A stretch of DNA of 64,000 nt, from the NCBI GenBank assembly GCA_963787175.1, contig CAWBCA010000017.1:120515-184514 (forward strand), read 5' to 3'. Positions 33,818 to 61,711 of the stretch are shown piece after piece. The stretch is from an uncultured Acidobacteriota bacterium. GTDB lineage: Bacteria > Acidobacteriota > Vicinamibacteria > Vicinamibacterales > 2-12-FULL-66-21. The position numbers and the translations under genes were made by a program. Numbering within the stretch: the stretch's first letter is position 1; each line of letters starts with the position of its first letter. The notes beneath the pieces were generated by a model, which saw only the letters and a list, made by a program, of their open reading frames with translations, was not told where the DNA came from and searched no databases.

Positions 33818-34734
33818 TCACTGTACCGACCGCAACTTCATCCGCGCGAGACACTCGTTGAACCGGGGATCGGCGCGCATGCTGTCCCACTGAGGCGCGA
33901 CCAAGAGATGGACCAACGCCGGGTCGCGCACGTCGAGGGCGCCGTGGAGAAGCGTTTCAGCGGCCAGAGGTCGCTCAACAATTCCCGCGCCGACTGATAG
34001 CGACCCTCGGCAGACTTCTCGAGGCACTTGAACGTAATCCGTTCCAGCTCCGACGGCACGTCAGGGTTGAGTTCGGTCATGGATTCGGGAGCCGCGCGAA
34101 GGATGGCCTCCATCAACTCCTCGCGCGTCGATCCGGCGAACGGAAGGTGCCCGGTCGTCATTTGATAGATGACGACCCCAAGGCTGAAGACGTCGCTGCG
34201 CGGGTCAACGTCGCCGCCCGTGATTTGCTCCGGGCTCATGCACGGTCCCGAGCCGATCACGCGACCGACTGCAGTCCCGGACTCCAGGATCCACTCACCG
34301 CTTCGCGTTGACTCATCGCGGAGCTTCATTTTCGCAACGCCGAAGTCGAGCACCTTCAAATGCCCGCGCAAGGTCACCATCAGGTTGGCCGGTTTGATGT
34401 CGCGGTGCGTGATGCCTTTGGCATGCGCCACGTCCAACGCGTCGGCAGCCTGCACGGCTATGTCGACGACCGCCGCCGGCAAGAGCGACCGCCCCGCGAC
34501 TCTGGCGGCAACGGTTTCTCCCTCGACATGTTCCATGACGATGAAATGCAGACCGTCGCTCTCACCGACGTCGTAGATGGTTGCGACGTTCGGATGATTC
34601 AGCGCGGAGGCCGCGCGGGCTTCGCGCTCGAACCGCTGCATCCGTTCCGGGTCTCCCGCGAGGTCGCCAGGAAGAATCTTGATCGCGACGGCTCGATCAA
34701 GCCGCGGGTCCCGCGCGAGATACACCTCACCCAT
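33818..34734 (-). pseudogene. 5'-truncated, internally deleted Ser/Thr kinase paralog
   Basis: The ORF begins MGEVYLARD, in the middle of the Gly-rich loop, with an in-frame stop four codons upstream. HRDIKPANLMV, DFGVAK and SPEQ are present. The kinase domain is followed, after a frame change, directly by the family's C-terminal tail DPALVHLLVAPQWDSMRADPRFNECLARMKL. Confidence 0.7.
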
Positions 34735-39466: not shown

Positions 39467-40793
39467 ATGAAAGCTGCTCTGCTCCCCTGCCTCGCGCTCG
39501 TCTTGTGCGCGTCGACGACGCGGGCGCAGGAACGCCCTCAGGCGTACACCGGCGCAACGATCATTCCCATCGCCGGCCCCATCGTGACCGACGGCGTGCT
39601 CGTCGTCCACCGCGGCAAGATCGTCGCCGTCGGTGCGAAGGGCTCGACGAAGATCCCTGCCGACGCGCAAGGCCATGACGCCTCCGGCAAGTTCCTGATG
39701 CCCGGCCTGATCGATACGCACAGTCATATCGGCGGTGGCGCGGGTGGCGATGCTTCGGCGCCGATTCAGCCGGACGTGCGGATTCTCGATTCCATCAACG
39801 TTCGCGATCCAGGTCTGCAGCGCGCGCAGGCCGGCGGCATCACGACCGTCAACGTGATGCCCGGCTCCGGTCATCTGCTGAGCGGGCAGACGCTCTACCT
39901 GAAAGTCAAAGACGGCCCGGTCGTCGACGACCTGCTCATCAAAGACGCGCAGGGGATCATCGCCGGCGGCATCAAGATGGCGAACGGCACCAACGCGCTC
40001 CGCCCCGCCGCCCCCGGTCCGTTTCCGGGGACGCGGGCCAAGTCCGCGGCGCTCGTGCGCGAACAGCTCGTGAAAGCCCAGGACTACCGCGAGAAAGTCC
40101 GCCGCGCCGGCACCGACGCGAGCAAACTGCCGCCGCGCGACCTCGCGATGGAGGCGCTGGTCGAAGCCCTCGAACGCCGCCGCGCCGTCCACTTTCACAC
40201 GCACCGCCATGACGATGTGTTGACGGCGCTGCGACTGGCCAAGGAATTCGGCCTCCGGGTCGTGCTCCAGCACGTCTCGGAAGCGTGGAAGGTGGCCGAC
40301 GAGATCGCCAGGGCGCAGGCTCCGGCGTCGATCATCATGATCGACAGTCCGGGCGGCAAGCTCGAGGCGACCGACATCAGTTTCACCAACGGCGCGGCGC
40401 TCGAAAGCGCCGGCGCGCTGGTCGGCTTTCACACTGACGACTACATCACCGACTCGCGTTTCTTCCTGCGCTCGGCAGGGCTCGCGGTGCGTGCCGGCAT
40501 GTCGCGCGACCGCGCTCTTTACGCGATGACGATGGCGGGCGCGACGATGCTCGACTTGCAGGCACGCGTCGGCACGCTCGAGGCCGGCAAGGACGCCGAC
40601 TTCATCGTGCTCTCGGGCGACCCGCTCAGCGTCTACACGCAAAGTGCTGGAGACCTATGTCGAGGGCGTCAAGGTCTTCGACCGCACTAATCCCCAGGAT
40701 CGGCTCTTTGCCGTCGGCGGCTACGGCGCAGGGCGCGACCAGCACGCCCACTTCGACTGCTTCGACGGCGACCACGCGGAGGGACAGCGATAA
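39467..40793 (+). CDS. secreted amidohydrolase-family metallo-hydrolase, one apparent frameshift near the 3' end
   Basis: Signal peptide MKAALLPCLALVLCASTTRAQ. GLIDTHSHIGG metal motif. VHFHTHRHDD. GTLEAGKDADFIVLSGDPL. The tail VLETYVEGVKVFDR...DHAEGQR-stop is in a shifted frame. Confidence 0.85.
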
Positions 40794-42052
40794 TGACGTC
40801 AATCCAGGTCTTCCGACTGATGACTTTCAGCCGGTGCCCTCTGCTGCTGTCGCTGCTGCTGGTGGTGGTGGGGAATCCGGCGCGGGCATTCGCGCAGGTC
40901 GCGGTGCGCGGCGAGACGGTGCACACGATGGCCGGTGCGCCGATTCGCGACGGGGTGGTGCTGATCAACGGCGGCAAGATTGAGCGCGTCGGCGCGGCGA
41001 GTGACGTCACCATTCCGGCACACTACAAGAGAATCACCGCCCGAGTCGTCACGCCGGGATTGGTCGACGCCCACTCGGTCATCGGACTCGCCGGTTACCT
41101 CAACCAGCCGCACGACCAGATGCAGCTCGAGCGCTCGGCCGCCGATGCAGCCGGAACTGCGCGCTATCGACGCCTACAACGCGCGCGAGACCTTGATCGA
41201 GTGACGTGCGGGGTTTCGGCGTGACCACGGTTCATACCGGACACGCGCCCCGGCGCGCTGGTCTCCGGCCAGACGATGATCGTCAAGACCGTCGGCGAAC
41301 AATGTGGACGAAGCGGCCATCCGCCCGGACGCCATGCTCGCCGTGACGCTCGGCGACGGCTCGCTCGGCCAGGCCGGAAAGCCGCCCGGGGACGCGCTCG
41401 AAGGCCGTCGCGATGCTGCGCGCCGAGTTGATCAAGGCGCGGGAGTACGAGACGCAAGGCAGCGACCGCGAAGGAGGATCAGAGGCCGTCGCGCGATTTG
41501 CGGATGGAGACGCTGGCGCGGGTCGTCGGCGCGAGATGCCGCTTCTGGTCAACGGCACAGCGCGCGCACGACATCGTGGCGGCGCTCCGGCTCGCGAACG
41601 AGTTCAACGTCAGAATCGTGCTTGACGGCGGCGCCGAGGCGTATCTGGTCGCGGATCAGATCAAGGCGGCGGGCGTGCCCGTCATCGTCCACGCGACGAT
41701 GTACCGGGCCGCCGGCGAGACGGAGAACCTGAGCATGGAGACGGCGGCGACGTTGCGGAAGGCCGGCATCCCCGTCGCGCTGCAGAGCGGCTACGAAGGC
41801 TACGTGCCGAAGACCCGCGTCGTCCTGTTCGAGGCGGCGGTCGCGGCAGCCAACGGCCTGACGTTCGACGAGGCGCTGGCGGCGGTGACGATCGACGCGG
41901 CCCGCATCATCGGCGTCGTCGAGCGCGTCGGCTCGCTCGAAGCAGGCAAGGACGCCGACCTCGCGCTGTTCGACGGCGACCCGTTCGAGTACACCACGCA
42001 CGTCACCGGCGTCATCATCAACGGGCAGGTGGTCAGCGAGACGGCACGTTAG
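40793..42052 (+). CDS. second secreted amidohydrolase-family protein, several apparent frameshifts
   Basis: The ATG overlaps the upstream TAA (TAATG). Signal peptide MTSIQVFRLMTFSRCPLLLSLLLVVVG. VVTPGLVDAHSVIGL. C-terminal part is in ORF 41498..42052 (GSLEAGKDADLALFDGDPFEYTTHV). Confidence 0.8.
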
Positions 42053-42256
42053 CAGGGCCGCTGAAGAAGGCCGGCCTGACGTGACGTCGAACGTGGCAGC
42101 TGCAAACTCCATTTGCGCTGTGCCAATGCAGGAGGCGTTTTCCAGGATCCTGTGAGGCGCCTGCTGACGAGACCGTCAGCGTCCGGCTTGACCGATCACC
42201 GAACGCGCACCACGGCCACGCGCTGTTTGGCATTCCATCTATCCAGCCGCTGCTCG

Positions 42257-43754
42257 TCATTTCGTGACTGGCACGATTCGCAGTTGAACGTCTTGAGTTC
42301 GGCCGGCGGAGATCGTTGTCTCGGCGCTGCCGTTCCCGCCACTGTGCGCCGCGGTCACGAAGTAGCGTCCCATCGGGAGCGGGAACCGTGGGGGACCTGA
42401 GGAATCATCGCTCCGGGTGACACGCTTCCGGTTGCCTTCGGCGTCCCGCGCGGCTGTATAGACCTCATAGGCCACGCCGCGCGCGGGTTGTTCGCCACCG
42501 CCGGCGAGAACGGCGGTCAACCGGAGGATGCCCGCGCGAAGGTTGACGACCTGCTGGGTCGTTCCGGCCGGCGTGACCTCGACCTCCACGTTTGCGGATG
42601 CGCTCCCGTACGCGGCCGTTACGAAGTAGCGACCGGCCGGCAGCAGAAACCGTGCGGAAGCTTCGTACTGATGGTCGCTCCCGGTGACGCGCTTCCGGTT
42701 GCCTTCGGCGTCCCTTGCGTCGTCATAGACCTGATATGCCACGCCCGACAGCGCTTCGGCACCGTCGGCCAGGACAGCGGTCAATCGGAGGATGCCCGCC
42801 CGAAGGTTCAGGATCTGGTGAGTGGGCCCGGCCGGCGTGACCTCGACCTCCACGTTCGCAGACGCGCTTCCGTACGCGGCCGTTACGAAGTAACGTCCGG
42901 CCGGGAGCGGGAACCATGCGGAGGCGGTACTGATGACTACTCCCGGTGATGTGCTTCCGGTGGCCTTCGGCGTTCCGCTCAGCTGTATAGACGTCAAAGG
43001 TGACTCCCCGCGACAGCGGTTCGCCACCGTCGGCCAGGACCGCCGTCAGCCGGAGGCCAGTTGTCGCGGTGGGCGCAGGGGCCCCAGGAGGCTCGGCGCG
43101 ATCCCCGCCAGTCTGTCCCGTCCGATAGACGACCATCGCAAGCAGAAATGCGGCAACCAATGCGAGAGCCGAGGTCAGCCTCACCCAACGTTCGCGGGAT
43201 GAGTTGGGTGGGACGGCGCCGATATCGGGCCCCGGAATGACCGGCTGTAGAGCACCCGGCGGATGGACGGGCGGCAGCGGCGGCACGGTTTCTGACGCCG
43301 GGGTCCGGCTGGGTGGCGCGCCGATGAGGCGGGCGAGGTCGGCCGTCAGTTTCTGGAACGCCTCCGCCTGCGGGGCGCCATCCCACTCAATCATCGGCGC
43401 GGCCTGAATGCGGCCAAAACCGAGCGGAGGGCTGACCTCATCGATGACCACAGGGATCAGCACGCCGCGCTTCAAGCCGACGTCGGCCTCTTCGCGCACC
43501 CAACTCGAGGCGACCGAGTCCCGAGACCACACGACCACCACGCACCGCGCGTCCGCGAGCGCCTCGGCGATCACCTGGTCGAACGTCCTGCCAGCCGGGA
43601 TCTGTGGATCCCACCACACGGACCAGCCGTGACCGGACAGAGCGTCGGCCAGCAACCGGACTCGGGAGAGATCCTGGCGAGCGTAGCTGATGAAGATGTC
43701 GCTCACAGGTGGGCGGGGCCGAAGTCCAGGGCCTTCACGGCGCCAACGCCGCAA
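42257..43754 (-). CDS. TIR domain - TM helix - three tandem ~88-aa repeat domains, one apparent frameshift
   Basis: TIR segment SDIFISYARQDLSRVRLLADALSGHGWSVWWD...CVVVVWSRDSVASSWVREEADVG. TM segment WVRLTSALALVAAFLLAMVVY. Repeats are of the type LRLTAVLADG.E.L.GVAY.VY..ARDAEGNRKRVT....LPAGRYFVTAAYGSASANVEVEVTPAG. An alternative GTG start is at 43706. Confidence 0.8.
42290..43080 (-). repeat. three tandem ~264-nt coding repeats inside the TIR gene
   Basis: GCCGGCGTGACCTCGACCTCCACGTT occurs at 42567 and 42831 (period 264 nt), with a more diverged copy at ~42302. Long near-identical stretches include CCGTACGCGGCCGTTACGAAGTA. Confidence 0.8.
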
Positions 43755-43921
43755 CTCTCGAGGATCTGGTACGGGCCGAGGCGGGCGCCGATGGTGAGGG
43801 ACAAGAGCGTTGCGTGGGATTATACGGTCCGGCGTTGCCAGCCTGGACGGGATTCATCACGTGTGACGCCCGCGGCGTGAAGTAGACTTGCGCCCTCTCG
43901 CCAACGAGGATTGGGGGACCA

Positions 43922-44955
43922 ATGCCCGAGACAACGTCCACGACAGCGGCCGTGCCGCCTCACGTGCAGCTCATCGAGATGACCACGGCCGCCTGGGCGG
44001 CAGTGCTGCTCCACGCCGCCGCCAAGTTCGGCCTGGCAGACCATCTCGCCGACGGGCCCAAGAGCGCCCAGGAGCTGGCCGGGCCGACCAGGACCCACGC
44101 GCCATCGCTCCACCGGCTGATGCGAACGCTCGCCAGCCTCGGGGTGCTGACCGAAGACGCCCAGCACCGCTTCCGGCTGACGCCGCTCGGCGAAGCGCTC
44201 AAGACGGGCGCCCCCGGCTCGGCGCGTGCGACCCTGCTGACGCTCGGCGGCGATGTCTTCTGGCGCGCGCTCGAATACTTTCCCTATTCGGTCGAAACCG
44301 GCAAGACGGGCTTCGAAAAGGCCATGGGCCAGCCTATCTTCGACTGGCTGGGGCAGCACCCCGAGAAGGCCTCTGCGTTCAGCGAAACAATGGTCGGCTT
44401 TCACGGCCGCGAACCGGCGGCCGTAGCCGAGGCCTACGATTTTGCCGGCGTCAAGGTCCTGGTGGATGTCGGCGGCGCCACGGGGAACATGATGACGACC
44501 GTTCTCGCCCGCCATCCCGACATGCGCGGAGTGCTGTTCGACCTCCCGCACGTCGAAAACGACGCGCGGGAACTTCATCCGATCGCGCGGCCTGACGGAC
44601 CGCATCACGCTCCAGGCGGGCAGTTTCTTCGACACCGCTCCGGCAGGCGGTGATGCGTATCTGCTGTCTCACATCATCCACGACTGGAGCGAGGACCAGT
44701 GCATCACGATCCTGTCCAATTGCAGGAAGGCCATGAAGCCGGACGGCCGCTTACTGATCGTCGAGATGGTGCTGCCCTCTGGCGACACGCCCGCACCCGG
44801 GCAAGATGCTGGACATGATCATGCTCGCCATCCCGGGGGGCCAGGAGCGCACCGAGGAGGAGTACCGCGTGCTGCTGAGCAAGGCCGGCTTCCGGCTCAC
44901 TCGTGTCGTGCCGACCGCCTCGGCCGTGAGCGTCGTCGAGGCGGTGGCAGCTTGA
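43922..44955 (+). CDS. O-methyltransferase (Methyltransf_2 / COMT-like family), apparent frameshifts
   Basis: Dimerisation-domain N-terminus LIEMTTAAWAAVLLHAAAKFGLADHLADGPKSAQELA. SAM motif KVLVDVGGATGNMM. LLSHIIHDWSEDQCITILSNCRKAMKPDGRLLIVE. Frame changes near 44560 and 44800. Confidence 0.8.
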
Positions 44956-44973
44956 TCGACACGGTTCTGCGAC

Positions 44974-45945
44974 ATGAGGCCCAGAGCCGCCCAACGGATT
45001 CTCGCGTGCTTGAAGGCACTCGCGATCGGCGATGCCATCGGGAAACAGACGGAGACGCTGTCCCCCGCCGCCATCGACCGGTGGTACCCGGGCGGGGTGC
45101 ACGGGTTCGAGGGCCCGCCGGGAACGCCCATCCCGCGATATGTGGGCAATGCCAAGCACGAGTGGCGCATCGGCGAGACAACCGACGACACCGAGCGGAC
45201 GATCGCTGTGGCGCGCGCGATTCTTCGCGACGCCGGGGTGCATCACGCGAGCGTGGGTCGTGAGCTGCTGGAGTGCACCAAGTGCGTCCACCCCGGTATC
45301 AGGTCGCTATGGGAATTTCATCAGGCGGGCGATCCCTCACGGGTCACCGGCATCCACGATGGATGCGGTGCTGCCGTTCGCGTCGCGCCCGTGGGCATCC
45401 TGTATCACTCCAACCGGCTGGACGAACTCGTTGAGGGGGCTCGAGAAGCTTCGGTCTCGACGCATGGAGGCGCCCTGGCCCTCGCGGCCGCCGCGGCGAC
45501 GGCGGCTGCGGTGTCCGCTGCGGTCGATGGAGCGGCGCCACCAGCAATCATCGAGCTCGCACAGCGTGCGGCGCGGCAGGCGGAGACAGCAAGAGCTGGT
45601 GCGCCCTCGGCCACCTTCGCGAATGCGATTGCGGTCATCTATCAGGACCTCGGCCGCAGGGCGTTGCGGCACGCGGAGATTGCCGCCAGCTACTTTCCCA
45701 GCAGTCCGCTGACCATTGTGCCGCTGGCCCTCGCTCTCGGAGCGGTGGCTGGCTCGGTCCAGGAAGGCGTGTTGCTGGCCACGAATGTCGGTGGCGACAG
45801 TGATTCTGTCGCCTCCATCGCAGGTGCCATACTCGGGGCACGGCGACCCGAGACAGTGATCGATCACTGGTACGAAACCGTGGAGATCGTCAACCGGCAC
45901 GATCTCCCCTCAATCGCTCGGGCCCTGAGCAAGCTGCGCGGCTAA
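44974..45945 (+). CDS. ADP-ribosylglycohydrolase family protein
   Basis: CLKALAIGDAIGKQTE, GETTDDTERT, NVGGDSDSVASIAGAILGA. Intact 323-aa ORF. Confidence 0.8.
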   Translation: MRPRAAQRILACLKALAIGDAIGKQTETLSPAAIDRWYPGGVHGFEGPPGTPIPRYVGNAKHEWRIGETTDDTERTIAVARAILRDAGVHHASVGRELLECTKCVHPGIRSLWEFHQAGDPSRVTGIHDGCGAAVRVAPVGILYHSNRLDELVEGAREASVSTHGGALALAAAAATAAAVSAAVDGAAPPAIIELAQRAARQAETARAGAPSATFANAIAVIYQDLGRRALRHAEIAASYFPSSPLTIVPLALALGAVAGSVQEGVLLATNVGGDSDSVASIAGAILGARRPETVIDHWYETVEIVNRHDLPSIARALSKLRG

Positions 45946-60200: not shown

Positions 60201-61711
60201 ATGGACGCCTTCATCAGTTACGCCTCAGCGAACGCCAGCCGCGCCGCGCGCGTCGAGCGCGCGCTTGTCGCGGCCGGGCGCACTGTCTGGCGCGATCGCT
60301 CGAAGATCCGCCTGGGTGTCCTCCTGCGGCGGCAGCTCCAGGAAGCCATTTCCGGCTCCCGCGCGCTCGTGCTCCTGTGGTCCAGGCAGGCGGCGCAATC
60401 CCGATGGGTCGCCGCCGAGATCCTCACGGCCTTTCATGTCAGGAGGTTCATCGTCCCGTGCGCGCTCGATGACACGCCGCTGCCACAGTTCCTGTCGGCG
60501 ACCGTTCATCTGAATCTTTCCCGTGCCACGAGTGGCGCGCTGGATGCCTTGCAGCGAGCGCTGGTCGACGCGCCAGCCGGTGCGAACGCCATCCCGCCCG
60601 CCGAGAGCAGCCGCAGCGCGGAGCAGCGTCGCGCCATCGATGCCATCAATCGCCTTCAGCACGCGGAGCTCGACCACCTGCAGCGCCGTGCCCTCCAGGC
60701 TGCGCGGCGCGCCCACGCCAGGACCGACCGCGAGATGCGGCGCGCCCGGAGGAAGTGGCGGCTGGATCCCATCGTCCTGAACCTTGCCGGGTACCATTGC
60801 AAGAACGCATACATGCTGAAGCACTGGGAGGCGTTGCAGGCCGGGCGCGGACCCGTGGATCAGACTGCTCGGAAGGGCCGAACGCCTGTTCTTCGAGACC
60901 CTCTTCGTGGATCCGACGGACCCGTACGGGCTGGATGGCCTGGGCAGCGTGCTGAGACTCGAGCGCGAGTTCGACGCGGCGGAGTTCTTCTTTCTCGAGG
61001 CGATCGAGCAGGCCGACAGGAGGGGTATCGTCTACCTGGAGCCGCGGCAGAATCTCGAAAGCGTCCGGCGCGCTCGAGGCGAGGCGCCACGGGAGGGCCC
61101 ACCGGCAGCCAGCCGCGCAACGCCGCCCCGCGACGCCGCCCCCCGTCAGCCGGGCCTCCCGCTCGACACGATAGCGGACGACCTCCGAACCGGCGAAAGG
61201 GCCCTCCGGTCGGGCAAGTGGCAAGGCGCGCTCGCCGTGTTCGATCGCGTGCTCCAGACTGCGCCCTCTTCAGGCGATGGCGCACGGGTTTCGAGCCGAG
61301 GCGTTGCTTCGGCTGGGCCGGTTCGACGACGCCCTCGAGGCGTACGACGACACTCTGGCGATCCAGCCGGGAAACGTCGCGGCGCGATCTGCCCGGGGCG
61401 CCATCCTGGTGGGTCTCGGTCGGACCGACGAAGGACTTCAGGACATCGACAGCGTGGTTGCCGCGCACCCCAGGCATCCTGAAGCTCTCTACAACAAGGC
61501 CTGCGCGCATAGCATCAAGCAGGAGGGGGGCGCAGCGCTGGTCGCCCTGGGAGAAGCCATCGCAGCCCATCCGCCACATCGCGCGACCGCGGCCTCGGAT
61601 CCGCATCTCGGATACGTGCGGGACCATCCGGCGCACGGACGGGCATTTCGCGCCCTGATGAAGCGCGGAAAGGCCTCCGCCGGCAAACCCGGGCCAGTCG
61701 CACGTCCCTGA
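60201..61711 (+). CDS. TIR domain - TPR repeat protein, apparent frameshifts
   Basis: MDAFISYASANASRAARVERALVAAGRTVWRD...ALVLLWSRQAAQSRWVAAEILTA (TIR, conserved Glu present). TPR-like C-terminal part is in ORFs 60907..61482 and 61277..61711 (AEALLRLGRFDDALEAYDDTLAIQPGNVAA...EALYNKACAH). Confidence 0.78.

Follow-up and report, generated by a model that had tools for sequence, protein, structure and literature searches.

The characterised bacterial TIR systems (Thoeris, TIR-STING, TIR-SAVED, SpbK and TIR-I to TIR-IX of E. coli) sense intracellular events, and TIR enzymes, among them SARM1, AbTIR, the plant TIRs, TIR-STING and TIR-SAVED, build their active site only upon self-association. In E. 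coli, TIR systems that consist of one protein and have an essential NADase residue were found by experiment to act against phages (PMC11350192), and, according to a recent survey, the combination of a transmembrane (TM) segment and an ectodomain that is typical of Toll-like receptors (TLRs) seems to be absent from bacterial TIR systems (PMC11350192). In the literature on membrane-anchored bacterial TIR receptors, we found no description of the architecture reported here.

The locus lies in a 64,000-nucleotide stretch of acidobacterial DNA, which we refer to as the window, and its source is a soil bacterium. Once a single-base frame break is repaired, the predicted features collected in Table 1 show that its product crosses the inner membrane once, in type II orientation, and combines a TIR_2 domain, a disordered linker of about 50 residues, one TM helix and an extracytoplasmic stalk of three repeats. 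From this architecture we infer that the protein may be a self-contained, single-gene, outside-in TIR switch, a mechanism to which we give an even chance. A sequence-only reading of the same DNA had recognized the domains and the repeat period, both of which hold, but had taken the locus for a single intact gene with near-identical repeat DNA, neither of which does.

Table 1. Features of the locus, in window coordinates, in the order of the encoded protein
Feature	Position	Strand	Basis or detail
Reconstructed whole gene	42257..43706	-	GTG start 43706, stop 42257-42259, 482 aa once repaired
Cytoplasmic TIR_2 domain, aa 4-120 (predicted)	43347..43697	-	Pfam PF13676, E=2.5e-23
Glu73 codon, putative catalytic glutamate of SSWVRE-E	43488..43490	-	Alignment to the Glu of AbTIR 'WTNYE'
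Pro-rich linker, poorly conserved, predicted disordered, aa 126-174	43185..43331	-	Homologue model pLDDT
Single TM helix (predicted), aa 175-193, VRLTSALALVAAFLLAMVV	43128..43184	-	Kyte-Doolittle 2.29
Repeat 1, predicted transthyretin-like β-sandwich, split by the frameshift	42794..43055	-	HMM positions 2-45 in 43055-42924, 45-88 in 42925-42794
1-nt insertion site	42926..42927	-	Surplus C in 'tac-c-gcc'; gene split into two ORFs
Repeat 2, 88 aa	42530..42793	-	HMM E=7e-37
Repeat 3, divergent, positionally conserved terminal unit, with short C-terminal tail	42260..42529	-	HMM E=5e-35

The N-terminal domain scores 83.3 bits with Pfam TIR_2 (PF13676; cut-off 28) and spans profile positions 1-121 of 122, and the family TIR HMM matches 43703-43320 with E=1e-65. 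Within it, the SSWVREE stretch that had been singled out from the sequence for its conserved glutamate has the signature of NADase-type TIRs, as Glu73, numbered from the GTG start, aligns with the glutamate of the AbTIR WTNYE motif (WVRE-E here, WTNY-E in AbTIR), which we take to be the catalytic residue E208 of AbTIR, equivalent to E642 of SARM1. Of the 91 TIRs of the family, 90 have this glutamate, and it does not vary in an alignment of 68 proteins across phyla. The nearest solved relatives are the AbTIR and SARM1 TIR NADases, the domain is under purifying selection (dN/dS ~0.25), and we predict it to be an NAD-cleaving enzyme.

The AF2 model of P0008, an intact homologue, has pLDDT <50 over residues 134-181, the region of the linker, and a helix at 175-196; the single TM helix, already noticed from the sequence, and the domain layout both agree with it. 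Linker and helix together have a dN/dS of 0.71-0.87. Lysine and arginine are richer on the N-terminal flank of the helix in 68 of 73 family members, with the reverse never seen (p=5e-13), and Sec signal peptides precede the same repeat in vWA and caspase proteins and in a stand-alone protein of S. meliloti. These positive-inside statistics and signal-peptide relatives place the TIR domain inside and the repeats outside, and the topology and receptor-like reading proposed earlier are thereby supported, as they are by the interchangeable PDZ, FGE-sulfatase and WD40 C termini of related proteins.

That three units of about 88 aa follow the helix with a period of 264 nt is borne out by TRF (period 264, 2.5 copies, 80% matches) and by the repeat HMM, which finds three units with domain E-values of ~1e-15 to 1e-37. 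The AF2 model of repeat 2 (pLDDT 89.7) has seven strands, and in a Foldseek search with it the top matches were transthyretins, with a probability of 1.0 and a TM-score of only ~0.6. A seven-stranded β-sandwich that superposes on transthyretin-like structures is what defines the transthyretin/prealbumin-like fold, and on the strength of the model we confidently assign the repeat, at fold level, to a transthyretin/prealbumin-like β-sandwich close to CarboxypepD_reg (PF13620). It shares the seven-stranded prealbumin-like sandwich of that transthyretin-like clan, but remains below the Pfam gathering threshold of 32.3 bits, as the whole protein scores 27.9 bits and a single unit 14.1, and has conserved motifs of its own, DAEGNRKR and PPRFPLPAGRYxVTA. 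No other named Pfam family matches it at its gathering threshold either, so that the earlier remark that the repeat could not be given a family name still applies, although its fold can now be stated.

Most of the family comes from Vicinamibacterales and other Acidobacteriota, with some members in Gemmatimonadota; the version with transthyretin-like repeats makes up 4 of 308 species-representative loci and is essentially acidobacterial. A TIR domain followed by one TM helix and a variable C terminus occurs in 62 of the 80 TIR-subfamily loci listed, from many phyla, and scanning 68 of the listed loci identified PDZ (13), FGE-sulfatase (12) and WD40 (4) domains at the C terminus. These sister architectures (TIR-TM-PDZ, TIR-(TM)-FGE-sulfatase and TIR-TM-WD40) have an N-terminal TIR domain that shares 40-60% identity and its invariant residues with that of our protein, and a TM helix usually 150-200 aa from the N terminus, but they carry another C-terminal domain and are spread across many phyla. 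The locus is one of a populous and unstudied class of proteins, with a conserved, Glu-retaining TIR domain predicted inside, a single TM helix and a swappable, binding-type domain outside.

The repeat itself ranges far more widely, with 2693 representative clusters at E<=1e-3 and 2-21 units per protein. It also occurs C-terminal to vWA, caspase, kinase and ECF-sigma domains and to a second TIR subfamily, its commonest N-terminal partner by far being a vWA domain with a signal peptide. The vWA-, caspase-, kinase- and ECF-sigma-linked proteins carry the same repeats, always C-terminal and extracytoplasmic, but differ in their N-terminal domain, and all are uncharacterised; the stand-alone periplasmic protein of S. 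meliloti adjoins thrS. What emerges is a large family of periplasmic repeats, as yet without a name and of ~2,700 representative clusters, that is common to proteins of the vWA, caspase, kinase, sigma-factor and TIR kinds.

In the outside-in switch that we propose, an envelope-side cue (for instance a component of a phage or of a cell surface, damage to the envelope, or a ligand that is a polymer) would bind or cluster the periplasmic repeats, and clustering of the ectodomains would bring the cytoplasmic TIR domains together. The assembled TIRs would then cleave NAD+, resulting in its depletion, and hence growth arrest or abortive infection, or in an ADPR-derived signal, and the number of repeats, which is 3-5 in the family, may determine how far the ectodomain reaches or how avidly it binds. 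The alignment and conservation of Glu73, the NADase TIR relatives, the topology statistics, the swappable C termini and purifying selection all speak for such a switch; the lack of a defence-island context, of phage copies and of full-length plasmid copies, and the frameshift, should it be real, count against it.

Indeed, the genomic surroundings offer no link to defence. PADLOC left nine of ten neighbours in the window without a match, the single match, at a distance of 8 kb, being a Ser/Thr kinase of a generic type, and neither defence genes nor a conserved partner gene were found in six homologue contexts, all of them metabolic or housekeeping. A small upstream gene in two of these (L002 and L006) was discarded as a candidate partner, as the two proteins are unrelated, and the lack of a conserved partner fits a single-gene system. 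Recurrent co-location with defence genes or mobile elements, the mark of a defence island, was therefore not seen in the window and these six contexts, which are a small sample. The gene alone aligns with its relatives (~80% nucleotide identity), with no synteny around it; searches for carriage by phages gave no matches, and those for plasmids gave only partial ones (TIR-only or repeat-only) and no full-length copies. The sequence-only reading had offered to give up a receptor role if the repeat matched a common housekeeping family and homologues showed no association with defence loci or NADase activity, and half of this has come about, as no defence-locus association was found.

These surroundings suit an alternative that we regard as unlikely overall, namely a structural or regulatory envelope protein, in which the repeats are merely a stalk in the periplasm or an anchor (for instance to peptidoglycan, EPS or the outer membrane) and the TIR domain, uninvolved in conflict, is a protein-interaction scaffold or an NAD-linked regulator of the housekeeping kind. 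The transthyretin-like/CarboxypepD_reg fold is a generic one, and the repeat is found mostly on secreted vWA proteins, as well as on its own beside thrS in S. meliloti; with a secreted vWA as its commonest partner, it could, instead of sensing, simply anchor or space proteins in the envelope in a generic way. Selection on the repeats is purifying, given a dN/dS of 0.27 within the gene and of 0.35-0.39 (~0.37) between orthologues, which would be expected of a structural stalk, or where the ligand is conserved, more than of a sensor caught in an arms race. Yet a pure scaffold would not need the NADase-motif glutamate, which is near-invariant in a domain whose nearest relatives are NADase TIRs. 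Furthermore, the TIR-TM module exchanges several binding domains, and caspase, kinase and TIR effectors are found joined to the repeat; predicted conflict systems draw on this vocabulary of domains (PMC7159879). In one homologue context, L004, TIR paralogues are clustered beside IS and integrase genes, the sole such case among the six. Should the repeats merely serve as a stalk or anchor, the protein is one more uncharacterised membrane protein of an ordinary kind; should the ectodomain control the TIR domain, bacteria would have receptor-type transmembrane TIR signalling, and surface sensing of phages or of the envelope would be directly testable.

The outside-in switch is described here for the repaired gene, and the state of the gene as sequenced needs to be considered. 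The reverse-strand span 42257-43754, presented in the sequence-only reading as one protein-coding span, is 1498 nt long, which leaves a remainder of 1 on division by codons, and comprises two overlapping ORFs in differing frames (42723..43754 and 42257..43027), a frameshift that had gone unnoticed. The repeat HMM changes frame at 42924/42925. Across the break point, relatives that are intact there have SSHPY-ASAWFPL (P0060) or HPYPAAWF, and the former points to one surplus C at 42926/42927 ('taCCgcc'). Judging by the homologues, which begin with the same MSDIFISYA, the true start is likely to be the GTG at 43706 rather than the TTG at 43754.

The surplus C is probably a sequencing or assembly indel, an origin that we favour because similar breaks affect the genes around it: at least seven disrupt the reading frames of the amidohydrolase and methyltransferase genes on its flanks, with about six within 400 nt of one amidohydrolase, and at such a density a technical origin is the likelier one. 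The flanking breaks lie at about 40640, 41150-41500, 44490 and 44800. A programmed frameshift was ruled out, as the site (cagtaccgcc) contains no slippery heptamer, the breaks of relatives lie elsewhere and the flanking genes are broken too. A genuine pseudogene, with a real +1 frameshift and a truncated TIR-TM-half-repeat product ending in a 68-aa out-of-frame tail, appears quite improbable to us. It would account for the two ORFs in different frames, and the several broken neighbours could mean regional decay; nor did public metagenomes yield an intact near-identical allele, those of JGI containing no exact DNA match across the break and, as best protein-level relative, one of 66% identity. 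The inserted base is, however, the sole lesion seen, the repaired ORF being free of internal stops, and low dN/dS is maintained on either side of the break (0.24-0.45). Some related copies from MAGs (P0040 and P0060) are likewise broken, but at other, non-conserved positions; the close relatives originate from ENA and 'MFD...' MAG assemblies.

Far less probable still is a rapidly diversifying surface receptor, whose repeats would have expanded recently under diversifying selection as they tracked a changing ligand. This follows the earlier suggestion of three recently duplicated repeats, near-identical in DNA over long stretches and under diversifying pressure, which the present comparison contradicts. 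Repeats 1 and 2 (R1 and R2) are ~80% identical in DNA, with a longest exact run of 29 nt, so that near-identity was an overstatement, and their dS of 0.53 is as large as that to orthologues in other genomes (~0.42). At the protein level, identity is 76% for R1-R2, 56% for R2-R3 and 49% for R1-R3, and R3 is 77% identical to the third repeat of P0008 but only 49-56% identical to R1 and R2 of its own gene, which makes it, by these comparisons, an old, positionally conserved terminal repeat. As each of the three units is nearer to its positional orthologues in other genomes than to its paralogues within the gene, the repeats of this gene are, by the same measure, old rather than newly duplicated, and the dN/dS values given above likewise run against diversifying pressure. 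Elsewhere in the family, the picture is more favourable to recent change: copy number ranges from 3 to 5 and varies among close relatives, internal units are 93-100% identical in some relatives (P0046, P0006 and P0017), and two near-identical proteins, P0022 and P0262, differ by exactly one unit. Short-read assemblies can, however, collapse repeats and create artefactual differences in copy number. A recent expansion is not found here, and for this copy we consider the diversifying-receptor interpretation largely refuted.

It is scarcely credible that the protein belongs to one of the known TIR systems of several genes, such as Thoeris (as ThsB), CBASS, Pycsar or a retron, and needs a nearby partner effector. 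Models of ThsB, TIR-SAVED and the type III Thoeris protein ThcB4 match it only weakly, below threshold and within the TIR domain alone (35.6 bits for NCBIfam ThcB4, with a cut-off of 220; E of at least 1e-3 for PADLOC ThsB). Thoeris would further call for an adjacent ThsA gene (SIR2/SLOG or Macro/TM), and no ThsA, SIR2, SLOG, cyclase or SAVED neighbour turned up in the window or the six homologue contexts. Moreover, although the window also has a second TIR_2 gene at 60201 and an ADP-ribosylglycohydrolase gene at 44974-45945, the latter is missing from all six contexts and its proximity is a coincidence.

Returning to the single-gene outside-in switch, a broader proposition, which we put forward only tentatively, is that the family and its PDZ, FGE-sulfatase and WD40 sisters form a repertoire of outside-in innate-immune receptors, with swappable periplasmic ectodomains and a TIR NADase activated by clustering. 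That such a repertoire would respond to cues outside the cell or at its envelope, for example an adsorbing phage, a breached envelope or a foreign cell in contact, and that it would be a reversed-polarity prokaryotic counterpart, in function, of IL-1R/TLR signalling, with an enzymatic TIR domain, is possible but just as doubtful.

Among known systems, AbTIR, PdTIR, TcpB/BtpA-type proteins and the SARM1 TIR domain share the TIR fold and are the best sequence matches of solved structure (E ~1e-4). The bacterial NADase TIRs and SARM1 differ in being soluble, with an identity of only ~30%, and in having no TM helix followed by extracytoplasmic repeats; the bacterial enzymes have a coiled-coil N terminus, and SARM1 is regulated through ARM/SAM domains. 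Thoeris ThsB, E. coli TIR-V, VI and IX and a TIR+TM system resemble what we propose here in that a TIR domain whose NADase residue is essential works by itself or with a small number of partners; some of the E. coli systems are single genes (PMC11350192). Unlike Thoeris, our protein has no ThsA partner and matches the ThsB model weakly, in the TIR domain only, and the E. coli single-protein systems have no periplasmic repeat ectodomain.

With the IL-1R/TLR receptors, the protein shares the linkage of a TIR domain in the cytoplasm to an ectodomain through one TM helix, and the three β-sandwich (Ig) domains of the IL-1R ectodomain have their parallel in three β-sandwich repeats; activation by clustering may be a further one. 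The polarity, however, is reversed (type II, with an N-terminal TIR domain), the ectodomain is predicted to be transthyretin-like rather than Ig or LRR, and the TIR domain, with its glutamate retained, looks enzymatic rather than like a pure adaptor. Members of the TLR/IL-1R family are type I proteins with N-terminal LRR or Ig domains, a TM helix and a C-terminal TIR domain with Box 2 and Box 3, a layout that this protein does not have, so that the resemblance is one of analogy only; in prokaryotic TIRs, Box 3 is absent and Box 2 typically so (PMC7075850). As there is no sign of homology past the TIR fold, the likeness to IL-1R/TLR is a convergent one.

The sequence-only reading placed one TIR gene at 42257-43754, a span of 1,498 nt that is no multiple of three and that holds two overlapping reverse-strand ORFs in differing frames instead of a single one (see table). 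The frame changes inside the first repeat, R1: with a family-derived HMM of the repeat unit, positions 2-45 fall in 43055-42924 and positions 45-88 in 42925-42794. Across the break point, intact relatives read SSHPY-ASAWFPLPAGRYF (homologue P0060) and HPYPAAWFPL (homologue P0008), and the window therefore carries one surplus C, 'tac-c-gcc', at 42926/42927. Deleting it gives a clean ORF of 482 aa with a GTG start at 43706 (MSDIFISYA), as in homologues.

Coordinates of the ORFs, neighbouring genes and related features in the window
Feature	Position	Strand	Observation
Hanks-type Ser/Thr kinase	33838-34734	-	generic; 8 kb from TIR gene; PADLOC PD-T4-6 kinase models, E=9e-82
Amidohydrolase	at 39467		frame change near 40640
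Next amidohydrolase	40793-42052		about six frame changes in roughly 400 nt (41150-41500)
ORF B	42257-43027	-	second half of R1, then R2 and R3
ORF A	42723-43754	-	TIR, TM helix and first half of R1, then Arg/Pro-rich out-of-frame stretch
O-methyltransferase	43922 onward		two frame changes (about 44490 and about 44800)
ADP-ribosylglycohydrolase	44974-45945	+	PF03747, E=3e-44; 1.2 kb from TIR gene, opposite strand
Second TIR_2 gene	60201-61658	+	E=2.6e-17, related subfamily; Glu retained (SRWVAAE); no TM helix or repeats; C-terminal half seems out of frame

The frameshift is probably a sequencing or assembly indel of no biological origin, because the genes around the TIR gene are likewise frame-broken in a GC3 frame plot and in three-frame translations. 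The frame breaks in 39467-45000 suggest that the assembly is rich in indels or the consensus locally poor; well-conserved genes there are pervasively broken, with protein similarity running on from frame to frame. ORF-based readings of the window need to allow for this. That the frameshift is genuine and the window copy a real pseudogene is improbable. No slippery site is present at the frameshift. Our search found no intact, near-identical allele that could settle its origin. ENA and 'MFD...' MAG assemblies are the source of the closest relatives, and the copies in homologues P0040 and P0060 are broken elsewhere in the gene.

In the repaired protein, aa 4-120 match Pfam TIR_2 (E=2.5e-23), scoring 83 bits where the cut-off is 28, and the nearest solved relatives, AbTIR and SARM1, each bear the PDB label NAD(+) hydrolase. 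Because its 'WVRE-E' aligns with 'WTNY-E' of AbTIR, Glu73 sits at the putative catalytic-glutamate position, which we take to be that of NADase TIRs; it is kept in 90 of 91 TIRs of the TIR-TM-repeat family and is invariant in an alignment of the wider subfamily, which carries the same TIR with other C-termini (n=68 proteins). Judged by these alignments, the protein is a genuine member of TIR_2, and its Glu is of apparently enzymatic type. Public annotation calls family members solely 'TIR domain-containing protein', and literature searches found no published description of the TIR-TM-repeat architecture.

The sole hydrophobic helix spans aa 175-193. In an AF2 model of P0008 (intact, three repeats, 71% identical), residues 1-128 fold as the TIR, 134-181 are a disordered linker (pLDDT below 50) and 175-196 form the TM helix, while three β-sandwich domains are modelled with confidence. 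Among 73 family members, K+R in the 15 residues flanking the helix average 4.1 on the N-terminal and 1.8 on the C-terminal side, with N exceeding C in 68 and the reverse in none (Wilcoxon p=5e-13). This charge bias, the lack of an N-terminal signal peptide in TIR-TM-repeat proteins and the occurrence of the repeat on Sec-exported proteins elsewhere together support the topology proposed from sequence, with the TIR cytoplasmic and the repeats outside.

The three repeats also held up, with units of 88, 88 and 90 aa after the TM helix and a TRF period of 264 nt (2.5 copies, 80% matches). Pfam gave only sub-threshold matches to them (CarboxypepD_reg, 27.9 bits against 32.3; also Big_3, Wzt_C and NOMO transthyretin-like). 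A confident AF2 model of R2 from a 60-unit alignment has seven strands (pLDDT 89.7), and its best matches in the PDB are without exception transthyretins or HIUases (probability 1.0, TM about 0.6, E about 2e-4), for which reason the unit is classed as a transthyretin/prealbumin-like β-sandwich of CarboxypepD_reg type. In sequence it constitutes a separate, unnamed family, whose conserved motifs are DAEGNRKR and PPRFPLPAGRYxVTA.

When 1.84 billion representative proteins were searched by profile, the repeat turned up in 2,693 clusters at E<=1e-3 (1,199 at E<=1e-10), each protein bearing 2-21 units. Of 141 new proteins among the top matches, just 2 have a TIR of the window type; the majority are laid out as signal peptide, vWA and repeats, and rarer partners are a caspase (with signal peptide), a Ser/Thr kinase, an ECF sigma-70 factor and a different TIR_2 subfamily. 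In P0149, P0169, P0182 and P0248, ECF sigma-70 regions 2 and 4, a long region and terminal extracytoplasmic repeats form one polypeptide; by domain order, such fusions look like a sigma/anti-sigma-type transmembrane signalling architecture with the repeat as outer module. Sinorhizobium meliloti pSymB encodes a stand-alone 331-aa 'hypothetical' protein with a signal peptide and three degenerate units (LZK74_23925, L087 3785-4780, adjoining thrS), a tractable handle on repeat function in a cultured model organism.

The repeats had been read as recently duplicated, with DNA near-identical over long stretches, and as hinting at diversifying pressure; for the window gene, neither reading finds support. 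R1 and R2 share 76% protein identity, R2 and R3 56%, and R1 and R3 49%, with a longest exact R1/R2 DNA run of 29 nt. R1 and R2 are nearer to their positional orthologues in P0060 (90% and 94%) than to each other, and R3, the positionally conserved terminal repeat, is 77% identical to that of P0008. The R1-R2 dS of 0.53 is no lower than the repeat-region dS to orthologues in other genomes (0.41-0.43). dN/dS is 0.27 for R1-R2. Orthologue comparisons give 0.35-0.39 across the repeats, 0.24-0.26 across the TIR and 0.71-0.87 across linker and TM, values that point to purifying selection on both functional modules. Frameshifted and lacking support for recent expansion, the individual locus is ordinary.

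Across the whole family, repeat number is dynamic. It ranges from 3 to 5 units in intact members (mode 4), and internal units are 93-100% identical in some (P0046, P0006, P0017). Exactly one added internal unit (89 aa) separates P0262 (702 aa) from P0022 (613 aa), which are otherwise all but identical and fall within one 90%-identity cluster; as repeats may collapse in short-read assemblies, such differences may reflect genuine copy-number polymorphism or collapsed assemblies. P0127 and P0271/P0273, likewise within one such cluster, are about three units (258 aa) apart and otherwise near-identical.

A species-representative genome scan placed 308 loci in the TIR subfamily, only four with repeats, all from Vicinamibacterales or uncultured Acidobacteriota. 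One TM helix lies downstream of the TIR in 62 of 80 listed loci, mostly about 150-200 aa in, and a variable C-terminus follows: PDZ (13), FGE-sulfatase (12) or WD40 propellers (4) among the 68 Pfam-scanned, many having no Pfam domain. In several genomes, two or more such paralogues coexist (for example, L013, L046 and L080; L008 and L071). A constant cytoplasmic TIR with swappable binding-type C-terminal domains reads, at the level of domain composition, as a putative receptor-family syntax.

The gene behaves as a stand-alone unit scattered over chromosomes: between genomes it alone aligns (about 80% nt identity), six homologue contexts, mostly metabolic, share no neighbours with one another or with the window, and we found neither phage copies nor full-length plasmid copies. 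A PADLOC search, proposed as a check for a defence link, gave no matches among the window neighbours (an FG-GAP protein, two amidohydrolases, an O-methyltransferase, an ADP-ribosylglycohydrolase, an amidase, a DUF5995 protein and a GGDEF-EAL protein); the sole match near the gene is the kinase, probably through generic kinase-domain similarity. The ADP-ribosylglycohydrolase, considered as an ADPR-linked partner, is missing from all six homologue contexts and, since these share no neighbours, is probably coincidental. Hints of mobility or of paralogues expanding locally appear in one context only: on the P0002 contig (L004 2975-9704), three TIR_2 paralogues lie within 7 kb, two of them TIR-plus-repeat (P0031, P0002), adjoining an IS91-type transposase, a phage-type integrase and a PDDEXK gene.

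TIR enzymes such as SARM1, AbTIR, plant TIRs, TIR-STING and TIR-SAVED are active only on self-association, and for this reason the most economical model is outside-in clustering: binding or clustering of the ectodomain on the periplasmic side would drive cytoplasmic TIR-TIR assembly, and the assembled TIRs would cleave NAD+, leading to growth arrest or a signal. A serious rival is that the repeats serve as a structural stalk or anchor. A classical arms-race sensor is disfavoured, both by purifying selection on the repeats and because no defence-island context was seen, and identity with Thoeris ThsB is rejected, the protein having no ThsA neighbour and scoring below threshold.

Single-protein TIR systems of E. 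coli have antiphage activity dependent on the NADase residue (PMC11350192), and predicted conflict systems include TIR, caspase, vWA, kinase and FGS/C-type-lectin sensor domains (PMC7159879, PMC10907252; comparative genomics). TLR-like TM and ectodomain features seem to be missing in bacterial TIR systems, according to a survey remark (PMC11350192). With TLR/IL-1R the window protein has the TIR fold alone in common and, because its polarity is reversed and its ectodomain fold different, it is no homologue beyond that fold; by analogy only, its predicted three β-sandwich ectodomains, one TM helix and cytoplasmic TIR recall an IL-1R-type receptor.
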